From contig CAWIIP010000002.1 in assembly GCA_963836235.1 (NCBI GenBank), forward strand, positions 1,568,001-1,632,000: a stretch of DNA of 64,000 nt, read 5' to 3'. A program made the translations under genes and the position numbers. This document shows, one piece after another, positions 43,947 through 52,689 of this stretch (the stretch's first letter is position 1; every line of letters begins with the position of its first letter). The notes below the pieces were generated by a model. It was given only the letters and a program-made list of their open reading frames with translations. It was not told the origin of the DNA and did no database searches. Origin of the DNA: an uncultured Pseudomonadota bacterium. Lineage in GTDB: Bacteria > Oederibacteriota > Muellerivitia > Muellerivitales > Muellerivitaceae.

Positions 43947-44061
43947 GGCTTAAATCTTTTTTTTTTAACGAAAAGGTTTTTTATTTTTCGGACGATTGCT
44001 TTCTACATAAAGATTGACCAAAAATGATGTGAAATCCACTCTTCTTTTTCTAGGAGCAACT

Positions 44062-45204
44062 ATGCGCTACCGTTGGCTGGGAAACACCGGGCTTCGAGTA
44101 AGTGAAATCGGTTTTGGGGCTTGGGCCATCGGCGGAAAATGGTGGGGTCCCCAGGATGATATGGACTCCCGTTTGGCCCTTCATAAGGCATTAGATATGG
44201 GTTGTACCTTTATCGATACCGCTTGGGTTTACGGAGATGGGCACAGTGAAAAGTTAATTGGTTCAGTCCTCAAAGATCGCCACGAACGGCCAGTGATTGC
44301 CACGAAGGTGCCCCCCAAAAATTGGAATTGGGATAATCGGCCTGGCACCCCTCTTTCGGAGACTTTCCCCTCGGGGTGGGTGGTCTCCAAAGCCGAGGAA
44401 TCCCTTCAGAATTTGGGAGTAGACTGCCTGGATGTCCTGCAAATGCATACTTGGCTCCAGGATTGGAACCACCAGGCGGAACCTCTTTTGGCGACGGTTG
44501 CCCGTTTGAAGCGAGAAGGGAAGATACGCGCGTTTGGCATTTCTTTAAGGGACAAGGGGCCGGAAGAAGCCAATGATCTCATCCGTTGGCGGCAGGTGGA
44601 CAGCCTCCAGATATTTTTCAACCTTTTTTACCAGGACCCTATTTGGAAGGTTTTTCCCCTGGCCCAACAATATGGGGTGGGTGTCATTGCCCGGGTTCCC
44701 TTGGCTTTCGGCGCATTGAGCGGACGCTTTACACCGAAGACCCGCTTTTATGGGGACGACCATCGACGGAATCTTTATTCCGGTGAAGGTTTGAAGGACA
44801 CTTTGAAAAAAGTAGAAAAATTGAAATTTCTTTCCTCGAAATCCATGCCCCTCAGCGAAGCGGCGATTAAGTGGACCTTAAACTATCCGGCGGTTTCAAC
44901 TTCTATACCCGGCATCCGTAACTTAAACCAAGCGGCGGTTAATTGCGCGGCAGGCGATGGAGAAAAGGTTTCATCTTCAACTGTCCAAAAATCCGAAAAG
45001 CTATACAAGGTTAATTTCGGCCTCCCGGTCAAGACCTTATCCTCCGACGAAGGAATCCAAGCTGTTTTCATGTCCGGTATCCGTTTGGCGGCACTCTCCA
45101 ATAAGAAGTTGAAAAAGGGGTCGGCGAAAAAAACGGGTTCAGGAAAATCCCCCAAATTGCGGAAGGCGGTAAAAAAAAGCCGTCCCAAAAAGAAAAAAAA
45201 GTGA
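44062..45204 (+). CDS. Aldo/keto reductase with Lys-rich C-terminal tail
   Basis: MRYRWLGNTGLRVSEIGFGAWAIGG, FIDTAWVYG, ATK; AGGAG before 44062. Confidence 0.92.
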   Translation: MRYRWLGNTGLRVSEIGFGAWAIGGKWWGPQDDMDSRLALHKALDMGCTFIDTAWVYGDGHSEKLIGSVLKDRHERPVIATKVPPKNWNWDNRPGTPLSETFPSGWVVSKAEESLQNLGVDCLDVLQMHTWLQDWNHQAEPLLATVARLKREGKIRAFGISLRDKGPEEANDLIRWRQVDSLQIFFNLFYQDPIWKVFPLAQQYGVGVIARVPLAFGALSGRFTPKTRFYGDDHRRNLYSGEGLKDTLKKVEKLKFLSSKSMPLSEAAIKWTLNYPAVSTSIPGIRNLNQAAVNCAAGDGEKVSSSTVQKSEKLYKVNFGLPVKTLSSDEGIQAVFMSGIRLAALSNKKLKKGSAKKTGSGKSPKLRKAVKKSRPKKKKK

Positions 45205-45915: not shown

Positions 45916-46500
45916 ATGTCCCGTATTTGTGTTTTCATCGATGGAAGCAATCTTTATTTCGCCCTCAAGCGTAATAATAAGATGACCCGGGTGGATTATT
46001 ACCAATTTTCACTCGCGCTCACGGGAGAGCGCAGAAAGCTGGTCCGAACTTACTATTACAACGCGGTGTTTGACGCGGCCCATTTTTCCGACAAGGCTAA
46101 AAGCCAGCAATCTTTTTTTGATTCCCTCGACCGTACGCCTTATTTGGAGCTTCGGCTCGGACGCATTATCCAAAACCGGGAAGGCCACCGAATGGAGAAG
46201 GGCGTGGATGTGCGCATGGCCGCCGACATGGTTTATTACGCCGCCCGGGATTTTTACGACACGGCCATCGTGGTGACCGAGGACCAGGATTTTTCCCCCG
46301 CGATGGGGCTGGTCAAGGAACTGGGCAAGCACGTGGAACTGGCGGTGTTTCCAGACGCTCAAAGCCGGGAAATGATCCGGGTAGCGGATAAGATTTTAAG
46401 TTTGGATGAAATCGTTAACGGCCAGGCGGCCCATATTTTCCCACCGTCCCAAAATGCGGAAGACCGCGCGCCGGACGCGGAAATGGCATTCGGCGTTTAA
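45916..46500 (+). CDS. NYN domain (LabA/DUF88) protein
   Basis: FIDGSNLY, EKGVDV, TEDQDF. Confidence 0.9.
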   Translation: MSRICVFIDGSNLYFALKRNNKMTRVDYYQFSLALTGERRKLVRTYYYNAVFDAAHFSDKAKSQQSFFDSLDRTPYLELRLGRIIQNREGHRMEKGVDVRMAADMVYYAARDFYDTAIVVTEDQDFSPAMGLVKELGKHVELAVFPDAQSREMIRVADKILSLDEIVNGQAAHIFPPSQNAEDRAPDAEMAFGV

Positions 46501-46643: not shown

Positions 46644-46704
46644 ATTTTACAATCATTTAATTTTTGGAAAATATTTAAAAGTCCGCTTTGTGGACTTTTT
46701 GTTT

Positions 46705-47676
46705 TTAAGACAGTTTGTTTCTAAAAAGATCCAATTGTTTGTCTCCAAAAAGGGCCCTCCACCTCGTCCTCAACCTCCATTTTTCCCTGAAAAATTTTAT
46801 TTTTCCATAAAGCGATTCAATGTAGCTTTCCGGGGGATAAGCCCTGGAGCCGTAAAGCTTCAAGGTTTGTTCAAAAGCGGACCTGTCATATTTTTTTAGC
46901 ACATGATAATAGTAGCCTTTCACCACTTGTCCTCGAAGCCTCAGAACGTTGTAAACAAAATAATCCACCCCTATTTCAGCCGCCTTTTGAACCATTCCTT
47001 CGATCGCTTCATCAGTGTCGGTTACGAAGGGGATGATAGGCATGAGGTGGATACCGCAGGGGATTCCATGGGCCTTTAACCGGCGAAGGGCTTCGAGGCG
47101 CCTCTCAATAGGAACCGCGTGGGGTTCCAAAAATTTTTGTAAAACCGGATTCAAGGTGGTCAAGGTCATGGCCACGCCCCCATCCGCCCGGTCCACCACG
47201 TCCTTTAAAACGTCCAAGTCCCTCAAGACCAAATCCGACTTAGTCGAAAAAACAGCCGGCCAAGCGTATTTGGCCAAAAGTTTGAAAGCACCCCGCGCCA
47301 GACCGTATTTTTTTTCCGCGGGTTGGTAGGGATCGGTGGCGGCTCCTAGGCTGATCCAGTCCCTTTTCCGCCGGGGGTTTGAAAGTTCCAGTTCGAGAAC
47401 CTCCAACAGATTGACTTTGACCTGAATTTTCCTTTGGAAATCAAAAGAGTTTTGGAAACCCAGAAACCAATGGGTGTAGCGGGCGAAGCAAAAGGGGCAG
47501 CCATGGCGGCAACCTCGGTATAAGTTAAGGGTGTAGTAAAAAGGTTTGGAACTGTAAGGCAGCCGGGTGTGGTGAAGGGCGGATTTTACCTTTATTTCGA
47601 TGTATTCCACTTCCCGGGGATCATCATCCACTTCGGTATAAGTGGGCGAAAAAGAAGTTGAAAGGGGAGGTTCCAT
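46705..47676 (-). CDS. Radical SAM protein, SplB/Rv2578c-like
   Basis: NLYRGCRHGCPFCFAR, TDPYQPAE, TKSDLVLRDLD. Confidence 0.9.
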   Translation of the reverse strand: MEPPLSTSFSPTYTEVDDDPREVEYIEIKVKSALHHTRLPYSSKPFYYTLNLYRGCRHGCPFCFARYTHWFLGFQNSFDFQRKIQVKVNLLEVLELELSNPRRKRDWISLGAATDPYQPAEKKYGLARGAFKLLAKYAWPAVFSTKSDLVLRDLDVLKDVVDRADGGVAMTLTTLNPVLQKFLEPHAVPIERRLEALRRLKAHGIPCGIHLMPIIPFVTDTDEAIEGMVQKAAEIGVDYFVYNVLRLRGQVVKGYYYHVLKKYDRSAFEQTLKLYGSRAYPPESYIESLYGKIKFFREKWRLRTRWRALFGDKQLDLFRNKLS

Positions 47677-47703
47677 CAATAAAACCGCCGGAAGGAAAAA
47701 CAG

Positions 47704-48210
47704 TTATTTGGTGAAGCTGGAGTTTCGATAAAAAAAGAAAAGGTTGGGGGAAAGTCCGCCCGACAGTTGAAGACTTTGATGGATTCGTTCGGCGGTTCGC
47801 AGAAAAGACTCTGTGGATTCAGAAAGTTTTTCGGAAGTAATCAATTTAATCCATCGTGGTTCCTCATCCCAAAATTCCCCCCCGCGGTCTCCGGTAGGCG
47901 CAGATTTTTCTTTCAGAAAGGTTAGAAATTCGGAAAGAGAAAAAGATCCTTTCAGGGTAACTCGGGTGGAAAGCCCCTTTGGCCAAATGAGAAAATCCAA
48001 AAGCTCATACTGTCCCAATAGCTCGCCTTTTAACAGCGACTGAACTAGATGGTGGGCGGCTGGAAGTTCCTTTAGCAACGGACGAGAAGATGCCGTTCGT
48101 AGCGCAATCTCGTAAGTGAAATTTTCTTTAGAGAAAGAATAACGAAAAGGTGTTTCCCGCGCTTGCGGAAGCAGGGGAACCGAATAATAAGGCATAGACA
48201 TCTCCACCAT
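47704..48210 (-). CDS. Hypothetical protein resembling an inactivated Y1 (IS200/RAYT) transposase
   Basis: TYEIALRT...RPLL, YELLDFLIWPKGL, SLSEFL..LK..SA, GEFW track RAYT blocks, but the HUH histidines are absent. Confidence 0.55.
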   Translation of the reverse strand: MVEMSMPYYSVPLLPQARETPFRYSFSKENFTYEIALRTASSRPLLKELPAAHHLVQSLLKGELLGQYELLDFLIWPKGLSTRVTLKGSFSLSEFLTFLKEKSAPTGDRGGEFWDEEPRWIKLITSEKLSESTESFLRTAERIHQSLQLSGGLSPNLFFFYRNSSFTK

Positions 48211-48240
48211 TATTTTTAAGTTTCAAAGTCAAAACGTCCA

Positions 48241-48858
48241 TTAACGGGGGCTAAAGACACCCACGACTTTCCCGATGATCCGGAAATCCTGGCCCTCGGA
48301 AATCACGATAGGTGAATATTTTGGGTTAGCGGGTTCCAAAATCACTTTAGAACTGGTCTTGCGGAAGGTCTTTACCGTGGCTTCACCTTCAATGAGCGCT
48401 ACTACGATTTCCCCGGGCGAGGCATGGGTGGTCTGCTGCACGATCACCTTGTCGCCGGGAAGAATATGGGCGTTCAACATCGAATCGCCCCGAACCGTCA
48501 GGGCGAAAAGGTTTCGACCACCGCGCGCCATAGAAGGGTCCACGACCATGGTTCCCTCGCGGTTTTCCTCGGCCAACAAGGGTAAGCCAGCCGCTACCTT
48601 TCCTAAGATAGGAATGGAAACGCCGACGGAGGAATCGTCCACGATTTTCAACCCGCGGGCCGTATGATCCTCCCGTTCGAGATAGCCTTTTTCCTCGAGG
48701 GCCAGTAAATGTTTTCGGGCGCTTTGGGGTGAGTTCCATTTGAAGTGCCGCATGACTTCCCGCACCGTCGGAGGACGGTGGGTTTGGGTGAGATGTTCTT
48801 GGACGTAGTTCAGCACATCCCTTTGAATGTTGGTCAAGGTTTCGTCGGATGGCGCCAT
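48241..48858 (-). CDS. lexA: SOS repressor LexA
   Basis: PPTVRE HTH, VAAG cleavage site, VRGDSM (Ser), ATVK (Lys); GGAGG before ATG at 48858. Confidence 0.96.
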   Translation of the reverse strand: MAPSDETLTNIQRDVLNYVQEHLTQTHRPPTVREVMRHFKWNSPQSARKHLLALEEKGYLEREDHTARGLKIVDDSSVGVSIPILGKVAAGLPLLAEENREGTMVVDPSMARGGRNLFALTVRGDSMLNAHILPGDKVIVQQTTHASPGEIVVALIEGEATVKTFRKTSSKVILEPANPKYSPIVISEGQDFRIIGKVVGVFSPR

Positions 48859-48882
48859 CTTGTTCCTCCGGTTAAAATTTTC

Positions 48883-48932
48883 TTGAAAAAGAATACGGCT
48901 GTATACTAGTATACGAGTGTATTCTTCGTCAA
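48883..48932. promoter_or_regulatory. Symmetric divergent lexA/radC promoter with two candidate LexA boxes (ATAC-N4-GTAT)
   Basis: TTGAAA AAGAATAC ggct GTATACTAGTATAC gagt GTATTCTT CGTCAA. Confidence 0.7.
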
Positions 48933-48953
48933 GCAAAAAAAGGGGTGCAAATC

Positions 48954-49727: not shown

Positions 49728-50066
49728 ATGGAAGAAGCCGCGATGAAAGTTGTTTTGATGGTTGATCTTTTTCAAAAGGTCAAAAAGCGTGTGCCTCAAC
49801 ATTGGCGGGAAGTGAAGGATTGCATCTCCGGATTGGGATACCCGGTGGAACTCTCGGAGTTTCATGAGCTGAAGATTGAGGCGCTGTCCCACCAAAAATT
49901 ACTGATCGAATATTCGGTTTTCACCGGCGAAAACGAATGGACGCCCTGTCGTAAATTGGAAATGACTTCTTTTGACGACGAGTTAACGAGGCGGGATGGG
50001 GTTCTTTCCAAATTGAAACTGGAGAGCTTTGACCCAACCTGGGTGGAAGAATTGCAATTTTCATAA
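49728..50066 (+). CDS. Hypothetical protein, paralog of the next gene
   Basis: AAGGAGG upstream; aligns by eye with 50088-50441. Confidence 0.7.
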   Translation: MEEAAMKVVLMVDLFQKVKKRVPQHWREVKDCISGLGYPVELSEFHELKIEALSHQKLLIEYSVFTGENEWTPCRKLEMTSFDDELTRRDGVLSKLKLESFDPTWVEELQFS

Positions 50067-50087: not shown

Positions 50088-50441
50088 ATGGAAAGGGATA
50101 AGAATCTTTATAAGGTCTTGATGATGTCGGGTATTTTTCGCTTGGATCACGGCTGCTGGCCGCAAAGCGCCGCCGAGCTGAAGGTTTTTACCGAGCAAAA
50201 GGGATGGAACCTGGATTTCTCGCCCTATTACAAGCTGACATTCCAAACCGACGACTGGCGCTGTCTGGTGGTTGAAGTGTCGTGGCTGGAAGATGGGGAT
50301 TGGCTGACGCGCCGCCGGTTTGAAATTGAGCCTTATTTCTTCGAGAAGGGTTTGGAACAGAGCATCCCTTTGAGGATTCGCTCCCGGGCATTGCCCCCGC
50401 ACAAGGCGGAGATTAAAACCTATTGCCCTTTGGCTTCCTAA
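50088..50441 (+). CDS. Hypothetical protein, paralog of the previous gene
   Basis: GGGAGG upstream; FRLDHGCWPQSAAEL motif. Confidence 0.7.
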   Translation: MERDKNLYKVLMMSGIFRLDHGCWPQSAAELKVFTEQKGWNLDFSPYYKLTFQTDDWRCLVVEVSWLEDGDWLTRRRFEIEPYFFEKGLEQSIPLRIRSRALPPHKAEIKTYCPLAS

Positions 50442-51804: not shown

Positions 51805-52689
51805 ATGCCGAAGAAAACTAAACCTGGATCCAAACTCCCTAAAACCGTTCAAAGCAAGTCCTCCGCTCCGGCGGCTAAGCCGTCCAAAATAAAATCCATC
51901 GGAGTGGCCAAGGGTCCTCTTAAGATCGCCACCTTCAACGCCAATTCCATTCGGATGCGGACCGGCATTATTTTAAACTGGCTGAAAAAAGAAAAACCGG
52001 ACGTCCTGGCGGTACAGGAAACGAAAGTTCAAGACCATGAATTCCCCCGTGAACCCTTCGAGGCCGCCGGATGGAACGTGGTCTTCCACGGGCAAAAAAG
52101 CTACAACGGCGTGGCCTTCATTTCCCAAAAGCCCGTCGAAAAGGTGGACATGGGTTTCTACAAGAAACCGGATGAGCAGGCCCGGTTTATCACCTGCGAA
52201 GTTGAGGGGGTCCAGCTTTTCAACACCTATATCCCGCAGGGATTCGACATCGAATCCGATAAATACCAGTACAAGCTCAAGTACCTGGCGGACCTGAAAA
52301 AATATTTCGAGAAGAACGTGCCGAACTCCAAGCCCGCCCTTTGGATGGGGGACCTCAACGTGGCGCGCACCGAAATCGACCTGAACAACCCCAAGGGTAA
52401 TAGGGACCATCCCTGCTTCCACGTCGACGCCCGCAACGCCCTGGAGGAAGTGATGAAAGGGAAATGGACCGACCTTTTTCGTGAAAAAGAAAAGGGGCCG
52501 GGCCACTATACTTTTTGGGACATGCGCCAGCCCGCCACTTTCGAGCGGAACCTGGGCTGGAGAATCGACCTGATCCTGGGAACCCCGCCCATGGTGGAAC
52601 GCCTTCAAAAAATATGGATCGATACCAAGCCCCGGGGTCTGGAAAAACCCTCCGACCATACCTTTTTAATCGCCGAATTTTCCCGGTAG
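51805..52689 (+). CDS. xth: Exodeoxyribonuclease III with basic N-terminal extension
   Basis: KIATFNANSIR, QETK, YNGVA, GDLN, GWRID, SDH. Confidence 0.95.
   Translation: MPKKTKPGSKLPKTVQSKSSAPAAKPSKIKSIGVAKGPLKIATFNANSIRMRTGIILNWLKKEKPDVLAVQETKVQDHEFPREPFEAAGWNVVFHGQKSYNGVAFISQKPVEKVDMGFYKKPDEQARFITCEVEGVQLFNTYIPQGFDIESDKYQYKLKYLADLKKYFEKNVPNSKPALWMGDLNVARTEIDLNNPKGNRDHPCFHVDARNALEEVMKGKWTDLFREKEKGPGHYTFWDMRQPATFERNLGWRIDLILGTPPMVERLQKIWIDTKPRGLEKPSDHTFLIAEFSR

Follow-up and report, generated by a model that had tools for sequence, protein, structure and literature searches.

The 64,000-nucleotide (nt) stretch of DNA analysed here (the window, G000:C2:1568001-1632000) comes from a 3.97-Mb, 99% complete genome of the candidate division FCPU426 and contains a lexA operon in which lexA is followed by an open reading frame (ORF) of 163 amino acids (aa), termed ORF163, and by a gene for a radical S-adenosylmethionine (rSAM) protein. 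Judging from its predicted structure, ORF163 very probably has the fold of the Y1 transposases. What is new is a conserved family of this predicted fold that carries neither the HUH motif nor the catalytic Tyr and that is placed in the lexA operon. Taken as a whole, ORF163 is tentatively read as a lineage-specific, LexA-controlled, non-catalytic Y1-fold accessory factor of the SOS response, a reading to which somewhat less than an even chance is given. The genes and signals of the operon are as follows.

48241..48858, minus strand: lexA, 205 aa from the ATG at 48858 (TIGR00498 at 2e-60, above the cut-off; Peptidase_S24 and LexA_DNA_bind)
47704..48195, minus strand: ORF163, predicted Y1/RAYT fold, without HUH or catalytic Tyr (an alternative start at 48210 gives 168 aa)
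46705..47679, minus strand: rSAM gene, 324 aa, of the COG1533/SplB-like group (PF04055 at 5.7e-13, above the cut-off)
46677..46699, minus strand: terminator-like hairpin, directly 3' of the rSAM stop codon
48945..49682, plus strand: radC (RadC-like JAB domain, PF04002 at 1.6e-41), divergent, with an operator region common to it and lexA

In the ORF listing of the window, lexA, ORF163 and the rSAM gene follow one another on the minus strand, all co-oriented and separated by 24-45 nt, as an earlier note on this DNA, made from the sequence alone, had described. The distance from the lexA stop codon is 30 nt to the ATG at 48210 and 45 nt to the ATG at 48195, and a further 24 nt lie between the ORF163 stop codon and the TTG start of the rSAM gene. 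The start at 48195 has GGAG just 5' of it and is the same as that of the database copy P0001 (163 aa).

The evidence for the fold comes from structure prediction. An AlphaFold2 model of ORF163, built on a 21-sequence alignment, has a mean predicted local distance difference test score (pLDDT) of 79.7 and a predicted template modelling score (pTM) of 0.71. The modelled topology is b-a-b-b-a-b-a-b, with b1 at residues 26-34, a1 at 44-59, b2 at 63-71, b3 at 74-81, a2 at 87-98, b4 at 115-119, a3 at 121-144, and b5 at 154-157, and residues 1-21 are modelled with low confidence (pLDDT <50). The predicted model contains the Y1 core fold, i.e., a four-stranded antiparallel sheet in the order b-a-b-b-a-b-a. 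When the model was compared with the PDB by Foldseek, all matches through rank 30 were IS200/IS605 TnpA proteins or the RAYT structure 4er8; these matches (ISDra2, RAYT 4er8, Sulfolobus IS200, IS608, and DR_0177) had E-values (E) of 9e-4 to 2e-2, a probability of 1.00 and a TM-score of ~0.5, with unrelated folds appearing from E 5e-2. VIA-align, which is independent of Foldseek and covered 48,161 chains, placed 4er8_A at the top (Z 11.3, root-mean-square deviation 3.4 A, 128 aligned residues), with model residues 22-163 lying on chain residues 8-144, followed at ranks 2-3 by IS608 TnpA (Z 10.2) and Sulfolobus IS200 TnpA (Z 9.3). Below these Y1 proteins came Thg1-like proteins (Z 8.7-7.9) and generic ferredoxin-like folds, and lower in the ranking other HUH or related origin-binding domains, such as parvovirus NS1 (7.2) and geminivirus Rep (6.5). 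At lead level, the neighbour clusters found in the ESM Atlas (scores 0.87-0.90) include one named 'Transposase IS200-like' and another in which 45% of the members have PF01797. The Y1/RAYT-like fold proposed by the earlier note is therefore supported by the predicted model and by both structural searches.

The residues that carry out the chemistry of Y1 enzymes appear to be missing. For the Escherichia coli TnpA-REP protein (4er8), the published description (PMC3479197) gives H59-M60-H61 as the HUH motif and Y115 as the nucleophile, with N119 and H123 completing the metal site. Based on the VIA-align range and the secondary-structure register, the HUH motif and the Tyr map to approximately residues 73-76 and 130-131 of ORF163. 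Of 32 members of the ORF163 family, 31 have Gly at position 74; position 75 is occupied by L, F, I, or V, and position 76 by F, L, or Y, with S and T once each; no His is conserved at any position, and a single His occurs at position 73. At position 131, which by this register would correspond to the catalytic Tyr, 30 of the 32 members carry Phe, and no N, Q, or P signature follows, both Y---Q and Y---NP being absent. The spacing from G74 to F131 is 57, compared to 56 in 4er8/TnpA-REP, and is close to the median HUH-to-Tyr spacings of 58-67 found in a HuH survey (PMC6006769). The same survey describes a conserved W in the superfamily, and W109, invariant in all 32 members, would by its position sit at this site. 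With the HUH histidines and the nucleophilic Tyr gone, ORF163 cannot act as a canonical HUH nuclease or transposase; it is highly likely to be devoid of canonical HUH chemistry, and the loss of all catalysis is what we infer. The earlier note had suggested that the HUH histidines and a C-terminal Tyr were lost. The first part stands, with HUH replaced by G-L-[F/L] and Phe at the mapped Tyr position, but a C-terminal Tyr does exist, namely Y156 on the terminal strand, although only in 24 of the 32 members.

ORF163 is almost certainly a real gene under selection. A word-indexed search recovered 23 homologues of ~160 aa, of which the full-length ones share 51-74% identity; Pfam domains and informative names are absent from all 23. 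A phmmer search of 1.84 billion representatives yielded 16 clusters (50% identity) down to 27% identity. Thirty columns are invariant in the 21-member alignment, and these columns as well as the protein length are maintained over at least 13 genera. A metagenomic member, P0027, which is 39% identical to the ORF163 of the window, is also encoded directly downstream of lexA at the one locus that a metagenome search with it returned, and the LexA beside it on the same contig is by eye very similar to that of the window. Ratios of nonsynonymous to synonymous substitution rates (dN/dS, omega) were calculated by the Nei-Gojobori method over 231 genome pairs and are reported for the 25 pairs with the lowest lexA dS. 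Omega for ORF163 is 0.13-0.51 in the 23 of these 25 pairs in which it could be computed (closest pair: dN 0.123, dS 0.394, omega 0.31), which points to a selected frame and agrees with the intact frame seen by the earlier note. In the same pairs, omega is 0.03-0.19 for lexA and 0.04-0.26 for the rSAM gene; an outlying lexA value of 1.75 for the pair L054/L055 was disregarded as a probable artefact of the start positions of the extracted segments.

The family has a narrow distribution and a fixed genomic position. An ORF163 profile found the gene in 22 of the 30 other genomes of the window's taxonomic family and in none of 68 genomes from the phylum's other 22 families; the gene is thus confined to one family of FCPU426. 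A census of the 31 family genomes, which combined the ORF profile, LexA and rSAM protein searches and fetched loci, placed the ORF directly downstream of lexA in all 23 genomes that carry it. There is one copy per genome at a single syntenic site, which argues against mobility. Counts of 18-mers revealed only low-copy dispersed repeats (29 copies at most) and no obvious abundant hairpin family, although no dedicated search for a cognate hairpin was made.

The spacer between lexA and radC carries a 34-base-pair operator at 48891-48924, which reads GAATAC-N4-GTATAC, TA, GTATAC-N4-GTATTC and overlaps promoter-like sites in both directions.

48891..48906: LexA box 1, GAATACGGCTGTATAC on the plus strand, one of two tandem operators
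48909..48924: LexA box 2, GTATACGAGTGTATTC on the plus strand
48903..48932, minus strand: promoter-like site of lexA (TTGACG, 18 nt, TAGTAT), overlapped by the boxes
48883..48912, plus strand: promoter-like site of the divergent radC (TTGAAA, 18 nt, TAGTAT), overlapped by the boxes

The tandem boxes are kept at 28 of 31 lexA loci, where the arms are invariant and the N4 spacers vary freely. The three exceptions are a locus with a single core, another with none in the fetched DNA, and an outgroup with a single box. Genome-wide, the core ATAC-N4-GTAT was observed 23 times versus ~58 expected from composition, and only two cores fall in the window, both at lexA. The perfect form GTATAC-N4-GTATAC occurs eight times in the genome versus ~0.24 expected (assuming equal base frequencies), at the following sites.

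C4:802029, C2:1023193, C4:149011, C4:214143, C2:347514, C2:848186, C4:115981, C5:148054: perfect boxes

Perfect boxes precede recA, a dinB-type polymerase gene, two umuD-umuC operons and a dprA-like gene; others are located upstream of a 151-aa gene (C2:847670-848125, no Pfam family) and ~350 nt before dnaB, and one adjoins or falls inside a 509-aa ORF. Since boxes at recA, dinB and two umuDC operons make up a canonical SOS regulon, GTATAC-N4-GTATAC is very probably the LexA box of this FCPU426 lineage. A literature search combining FCPU426 and LexA found no paper.

Within the operon, neither a promoter-like site on the minus strand nor a terminator-like hairpin occurs in the gaps between lexA, ORF163 and the rSAM gene. 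Together with the shortness of these gaps and the hairpin downstream of the rSAM gene, this strongly suggests SOS-controlled co-transcription, and there is good reason to regard the operon as being under LexA/SOS control with high probability. The presence of an SplB-like rSAM gene and of radC beside lexA is in itself ordinary, because SOS control of such genes has already been described: in two studies (PMC8565304, PMC3765255), splB (COG1533) and radC are reported as SOS members in several phyla. The earlier note was right on this point for splB-like genes, and likewise in calling radC divergent. Its link to a nearby xth gene did not hold up. The ExoIII-type Exo_endo_phos gene (xth) at 51805-52689 lies ~3 kb off, behind fabI and other genes, and has no box; it was rejected as a part of the operon.

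Two further observations concern the lexA region. The longest lexA ORF (48936..48241) begins with a TTG at 48936 and reads through the operator and promoter (48859-48936, minus strand). The ATG at 48858, from which the protein opens with MAPSDET, is the start common to all relatives, and automatic callers may therefore over-extend lexA here. In addition, the only locus with a long lexA-ORF spacer (L050 of genome G058, 242 nt) contains a box-like GCATAC-N4-GTATTC at 1408-1424, ~190 nt upstream of the ORF. Here the ORF may have an operator of its own; being a single case, the site could also be due to chance.

Under the reading favoured here, ORF163 would be transcribed from the LexA-repressed lexA promoter along with lexA and, where present, the SplB-like rSAM gene, and the protein would be made once DNA damage relieves LexA repression. 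The product, a single-domain protein, would bind single-stranded or hairpin DNA without catalysis and would serve the SOS response on its own as an accessory factor, with no obligate partnership with the rSAM enzyme. By analogy with other proteins of this fold, binding of single-stranded DNA (ssDNA) or hairpins is a possible function of ORF163, held at rather less than an even chance in view of the near-neutral isoelectric point (pI) of the protein. A more specific version, in which a Y1 fold stripped of its chemistry has become fixed as an SOS-induced reader of ssDNA or hairpins, produced only upon cleavage of LexA and recognising folded ssDNA at gaps or stalled forks in order to shield it or flag it for repair, is more doubtful.

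A number of findings weigh against this reading. The first group concerns the sequence of ORF163. A Pfam scan of 12 family members at E<=10 produced no Y1 match (0/12) and indeed no match at all, the ORF163 of the window has no Pfam match at E<=1 and no NCBIfam match, and genome-wide PF01797 searches return three real Y1 genes but never ORF163. Alignment by hhalign to two local Y1 profiles, one RAYT-like (20 local sequences) and one IS200-like (5), gave probabilities of 0.15-0.2%, i.e., noise level; the comparisons covered local, global and mact 0.01 modes and included reversed templates as controls. When ORF163 was aligned permissively to the IS200 profile, its WPxGLxxR segment came to lie over the HUH strand, but with a probability of 0.2%. 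A profile search of the PDB with ORF163 returned a best E of 0.15, an irrelevant match, and phmmer with the genome's own RAYT-like core found no match in the PDB, leaving no residue-level bridge from ORF163 to 4er8. With no sequence-level support for Y1, the assignment rests on a structure predicted from only 21 sequences. The earlier note had claimed that ORF163 follows the RAYT pattern block by block. The peptide blocks that it quoted (TYEIALRT, YELLDFLIWPKGL, SLSEFL..LK, and GEFWD) are indeed present in the translation, but the match finds no statistical support in the Pfam and hhalign results, and the resemblance is best viewed as a correct intuition on the fold register with no demonstrable sequence match. 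Moreover, co-transcription and damage induction of the lexA-ORF163-rSAM genes are what we infer from the sequence, and the mapping of the HUH and Tyr positions follows from register and alignment ranges rather than from residue-level superposition.

The second group concerns residues that might form a different active site. Y28, E29, and R78 are invariant (32/32), and E14 (31/32), E112 (30/32) and D67 (27/32) nearly so. ORF163 could accordingly be a DNA-acting enzyme in which a new active site composed of Y28, E29, R78, plus E14, D67, and E112, has replaced HUH and Tyr. In the model, R78 lies on the strand that bears HUH in Y1 enzymes, with Y28 and E29 on the neighbouring first strand, and the same degree of invariance is seen for W109. 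However, neither His nor Cys is conserved in the family and no metal-binding triad can be recognised; the invariant residues may have a structural role or contact DNA, and the literature search gave no precedent for active HUH-less Y1 proteins. Such an enzyme is considered unlikely.

The pI itself, which is 5.3-8.8 in five members, is not suggestive of a nucleic-acid binder, and it would fit an alternative in which the Y1 scaffold serves as a protein-binding regulator of the SOS switch, acting on LexA self-cleavage, operator binding or the RecA filament. Such a role would explain the constant position right behind lexA, which holds in 23 of 23 genomes with or without the rSAM gene, and the conservation of E14 and Y19 within the low-confidence N-terminus (residues 1-21) is as expected of a short linear interaction motif. 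The adjacency is equally explained by the borrowing of a LexA-controlled promoter, and the conservation of LexA (86% mean column identity) alongside the rapid divergence of the ORF (56%) is not the pattern of a tight co-evolving pair. A complex prediction for LexA and ORF163 from 22-row alignments scored 0.00 versus a mark of 0.32, a result that counts neither for nor against binding. This regulatory role is given a low probability, on a par with that of the new enzyme.

The third group concerns the pace of evolution and gene loss. The evolutionary rate of ORF163 is several times that of lexA and of the rSAM gene. In the census, 15 genomes have lexA-ORF-rSAM, eight have lexA-ORF, six have lexA-rSAM, one has lexA alone, and in one (85% complete) lexA was not found. 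The earlier note had named absence or decay of the ORF in related lexA operons as evidence that would speak against its proposal, and this is seen in part of the family: the ORF is absent at 7 of 30 lexA loci, including those of G046 and G050 (both 99% complete) and G061 (97%), and is split into two overlapping frames in G048, which belongs to the lexA-ORF group. One of the seven, G054, is of the same genus as the window, with LexA and rSAM proteins 97% and 90% identical to those of the window, and all that is left of its ORF between lexA and the rSAM gene is a remnant of codons 1-33. The ORF163 gene is dispensable in several lineages.

The high rate of evolution, the repeated losses, the frameshifted copy and the deletion remnant are in line with a decaying, functionless transposase remnant behind lexA. 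A variant of this explanation regards ORF163 as a decoy that damps resident Y1 transposases upon ssDNA build-up, and three intact RAYT-like genes are found in the window's genome. As to the remnant, dN/dS is well under 1 in all 23 computable reported pairs, the length and the 30 invariant columns are preserved over at least 13 genera, and the gene persists as a single copy at a fixed syntenic site, all of which speak against decay. As to the decoy, no PF01797 gene at all is present in 7 of the 23 genomes with the ORF, among them G068 and G070 (99% complete), so that the presence of the ORF does not track resident Y1 transposases, and hhalign detects no sequence similarity between ORF163 and the resident Y1 proteins. 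Decay, with or without a decoy role, is regarded as quite improbable.

The census also bears on the proposal that ORF163 is a substrate-recognition or targeting subunit of the adjacent SplB-like rSAM enzyme. The two genes adjoin across the 24-nt gap, the ORF-rSAM order occurs in 15 of 31 genomes, and a small non-catalytic SplB partner, ImuB-C, has been proposed elsewhere (PMC3765255). However, the two genes are lost independently, with the combinations ORF+/rSAM+ in 15 genomes, +/- in 8, -/+ in 6, and -/- in 1, and show no positive association. Because they come and go independently, an obligate ORF-rSAM pair is argued against, and the subunit role, disfavoured by the census, is the least probable of the alternatives considered, ranking marginally below decay. 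Outside the window's family, rSAM homologues (33-39% identity) were never found on the lexA contig. The three-gene repair cassette with a conserved gene order that the earlier note had envisaged likewise gives way, as only 15 of 31 family genomes keep lexA-ORF-rSAM. As separate candidates, the identification of ORF163 with ImuB-C, SRAP or DUF4130 as a partner of SplB was rejected, since there is no Pfam match.

With respect to the rSAM protein itself, the CxxxCxxC motif is present as CRHGCPFC. The closest families are those of Rv2578c and PA0069, both matched below the cut-off (NF038135, 211 vs 430 bits; NF033668, 200 vs 360), and the Pfam SPL model matches with an E of only 0.14. On the basis of its sequence, the downstream rSAM protein is a relative of the Rv2578c/PA0069 families and not an equivalog.

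Several other features of the window and the genome were recorded. Two small adjacent ORFs lie 3' of radC on the plus strand, at 49728-50066 (112 aa) and 50088-50441 (117 aa). Neither has a Pfam match, both are conserved in the syntenic block, and the two look like tandem paralogues because they match the same stretch in L001 and L007 when used as queries. Convergent on the operon is a gene for an NYN-domain protein (45916-46500, plus strand; PF01936 at 1.1e-24), which is unusually conserved, with 83-92% identity where relatives have a full-length gene. Further along, an ORF at 44014-45204 (plus strand), presumably an aldo-keto-reductase-like gene as named from reading the sequence and not from a family scan, has a long lysine-rich C-terminal tail (a run of K, R, S, and G).

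Elsewhere in the genome, the three intact Y1 (RAYT-like) genes (L008-L010, at C2:2047725, C2:1842566, and C5:264042) encode proteins of 317-320 aa with MPNHVHLL or MDNHYHLL and RYxxLNP (HUH and Y---NP) and a long C-terminal extension; they appear to belong to the RAYT subclass with a DnaA-like domain. The relatives G048, G051, and G067 have 11-20 Y1_Tnp matches. Among the repeats, a dispersed 25-copy repeat with CACCAAGGGCACCAAGAA includes some inverted pairs ~70-90 nt apart (REPIN- or MITE-like), for example the following.

C2:771045/771116, C2:867955/868024, C2:1848756/1848843: copies of the CACCAAGGGCACCAAGAA repeat

A 29-copy clustered repeat and a ~190-nt element in 11-16 copies are also present.

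Compared with known systems, the predicted ORF163 protein is closest to the RAYT/TnpA-REP proteins, whose E. coli representative YafM (4er8) is its best structural match in the model over nearly the whole protein. The two are of similar size (163 vs 165 aa), share comparable positions of the conserved W and comparable HUH-to-Tyr spacing, and are alike in being single-copy, vertically inherited and retained by the host. Unlike RAYT/TnpA-REP, ORF163 lacks HUH, Tyr, and Y---NP, shows no detectable sequence similarity, and is located inside an operon with 24-45-nt gaps under a LexA operator. The core fold predicted for ORF163 is also the same as that of the IS200/IS605 TnpA proteins (IS608, ISDra2, and Sulfolobus IS200), which are active, multi-copy, dimeric enzymes with HUH and Y---Q, whereas ORF163 has neither motif and is immobile. 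The substrate of ISDra2 and IS608 is ssDNA that becomes exposed in replication or repair, a condition that also triggers the SOS response. ORF163 also resembles the accessory genes of LexA operons and SOS regulons, such as the splB-like rSAM gene, radC, imuA-imuB-dnaE2, SRAP, and ImuB-C, in its placement under a LexA operator. However, none of these described families has a Y1/HUH fold, and their Pfam models give no match to ORF163.

That hosts recruit transposase folds is well established for active enzymes, with RAYTs as the bacterial Y1 example. The literature search, with supplementary files outside its scope, found no report of a conserved family that has the Y1 fold but lacks HUH and Tyr, and none of such a family in a LexA regulon. 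Of sequences without the core motifs, the HuH survey (PMC6006769) says only that they are probably non-functional.

The scope of the finding is narrow, as it concerns one family of an uncultured phylum and a gene that is dispensable in several of its members. As a by-product, the analysis yields, for candidate division FCPU426, a probable LexA box (GTATAC-N4-GTATAC) and the core of an SOS regulon. More generally, ORF163 offers a modest new example of a mobile-element fold that has apparently been reused by the host DNA-damage response. If the reading as an SOS-induced DNA reader is true, it would be the first non-catalytic, host-recruited Y1 member with a role in the DNA-damage response, and if binding of ssDNA or hairpins is true, the family would provide a naturally occurring HUH module of a 'binding-only' kind and add a new accessory function to the SOS response.

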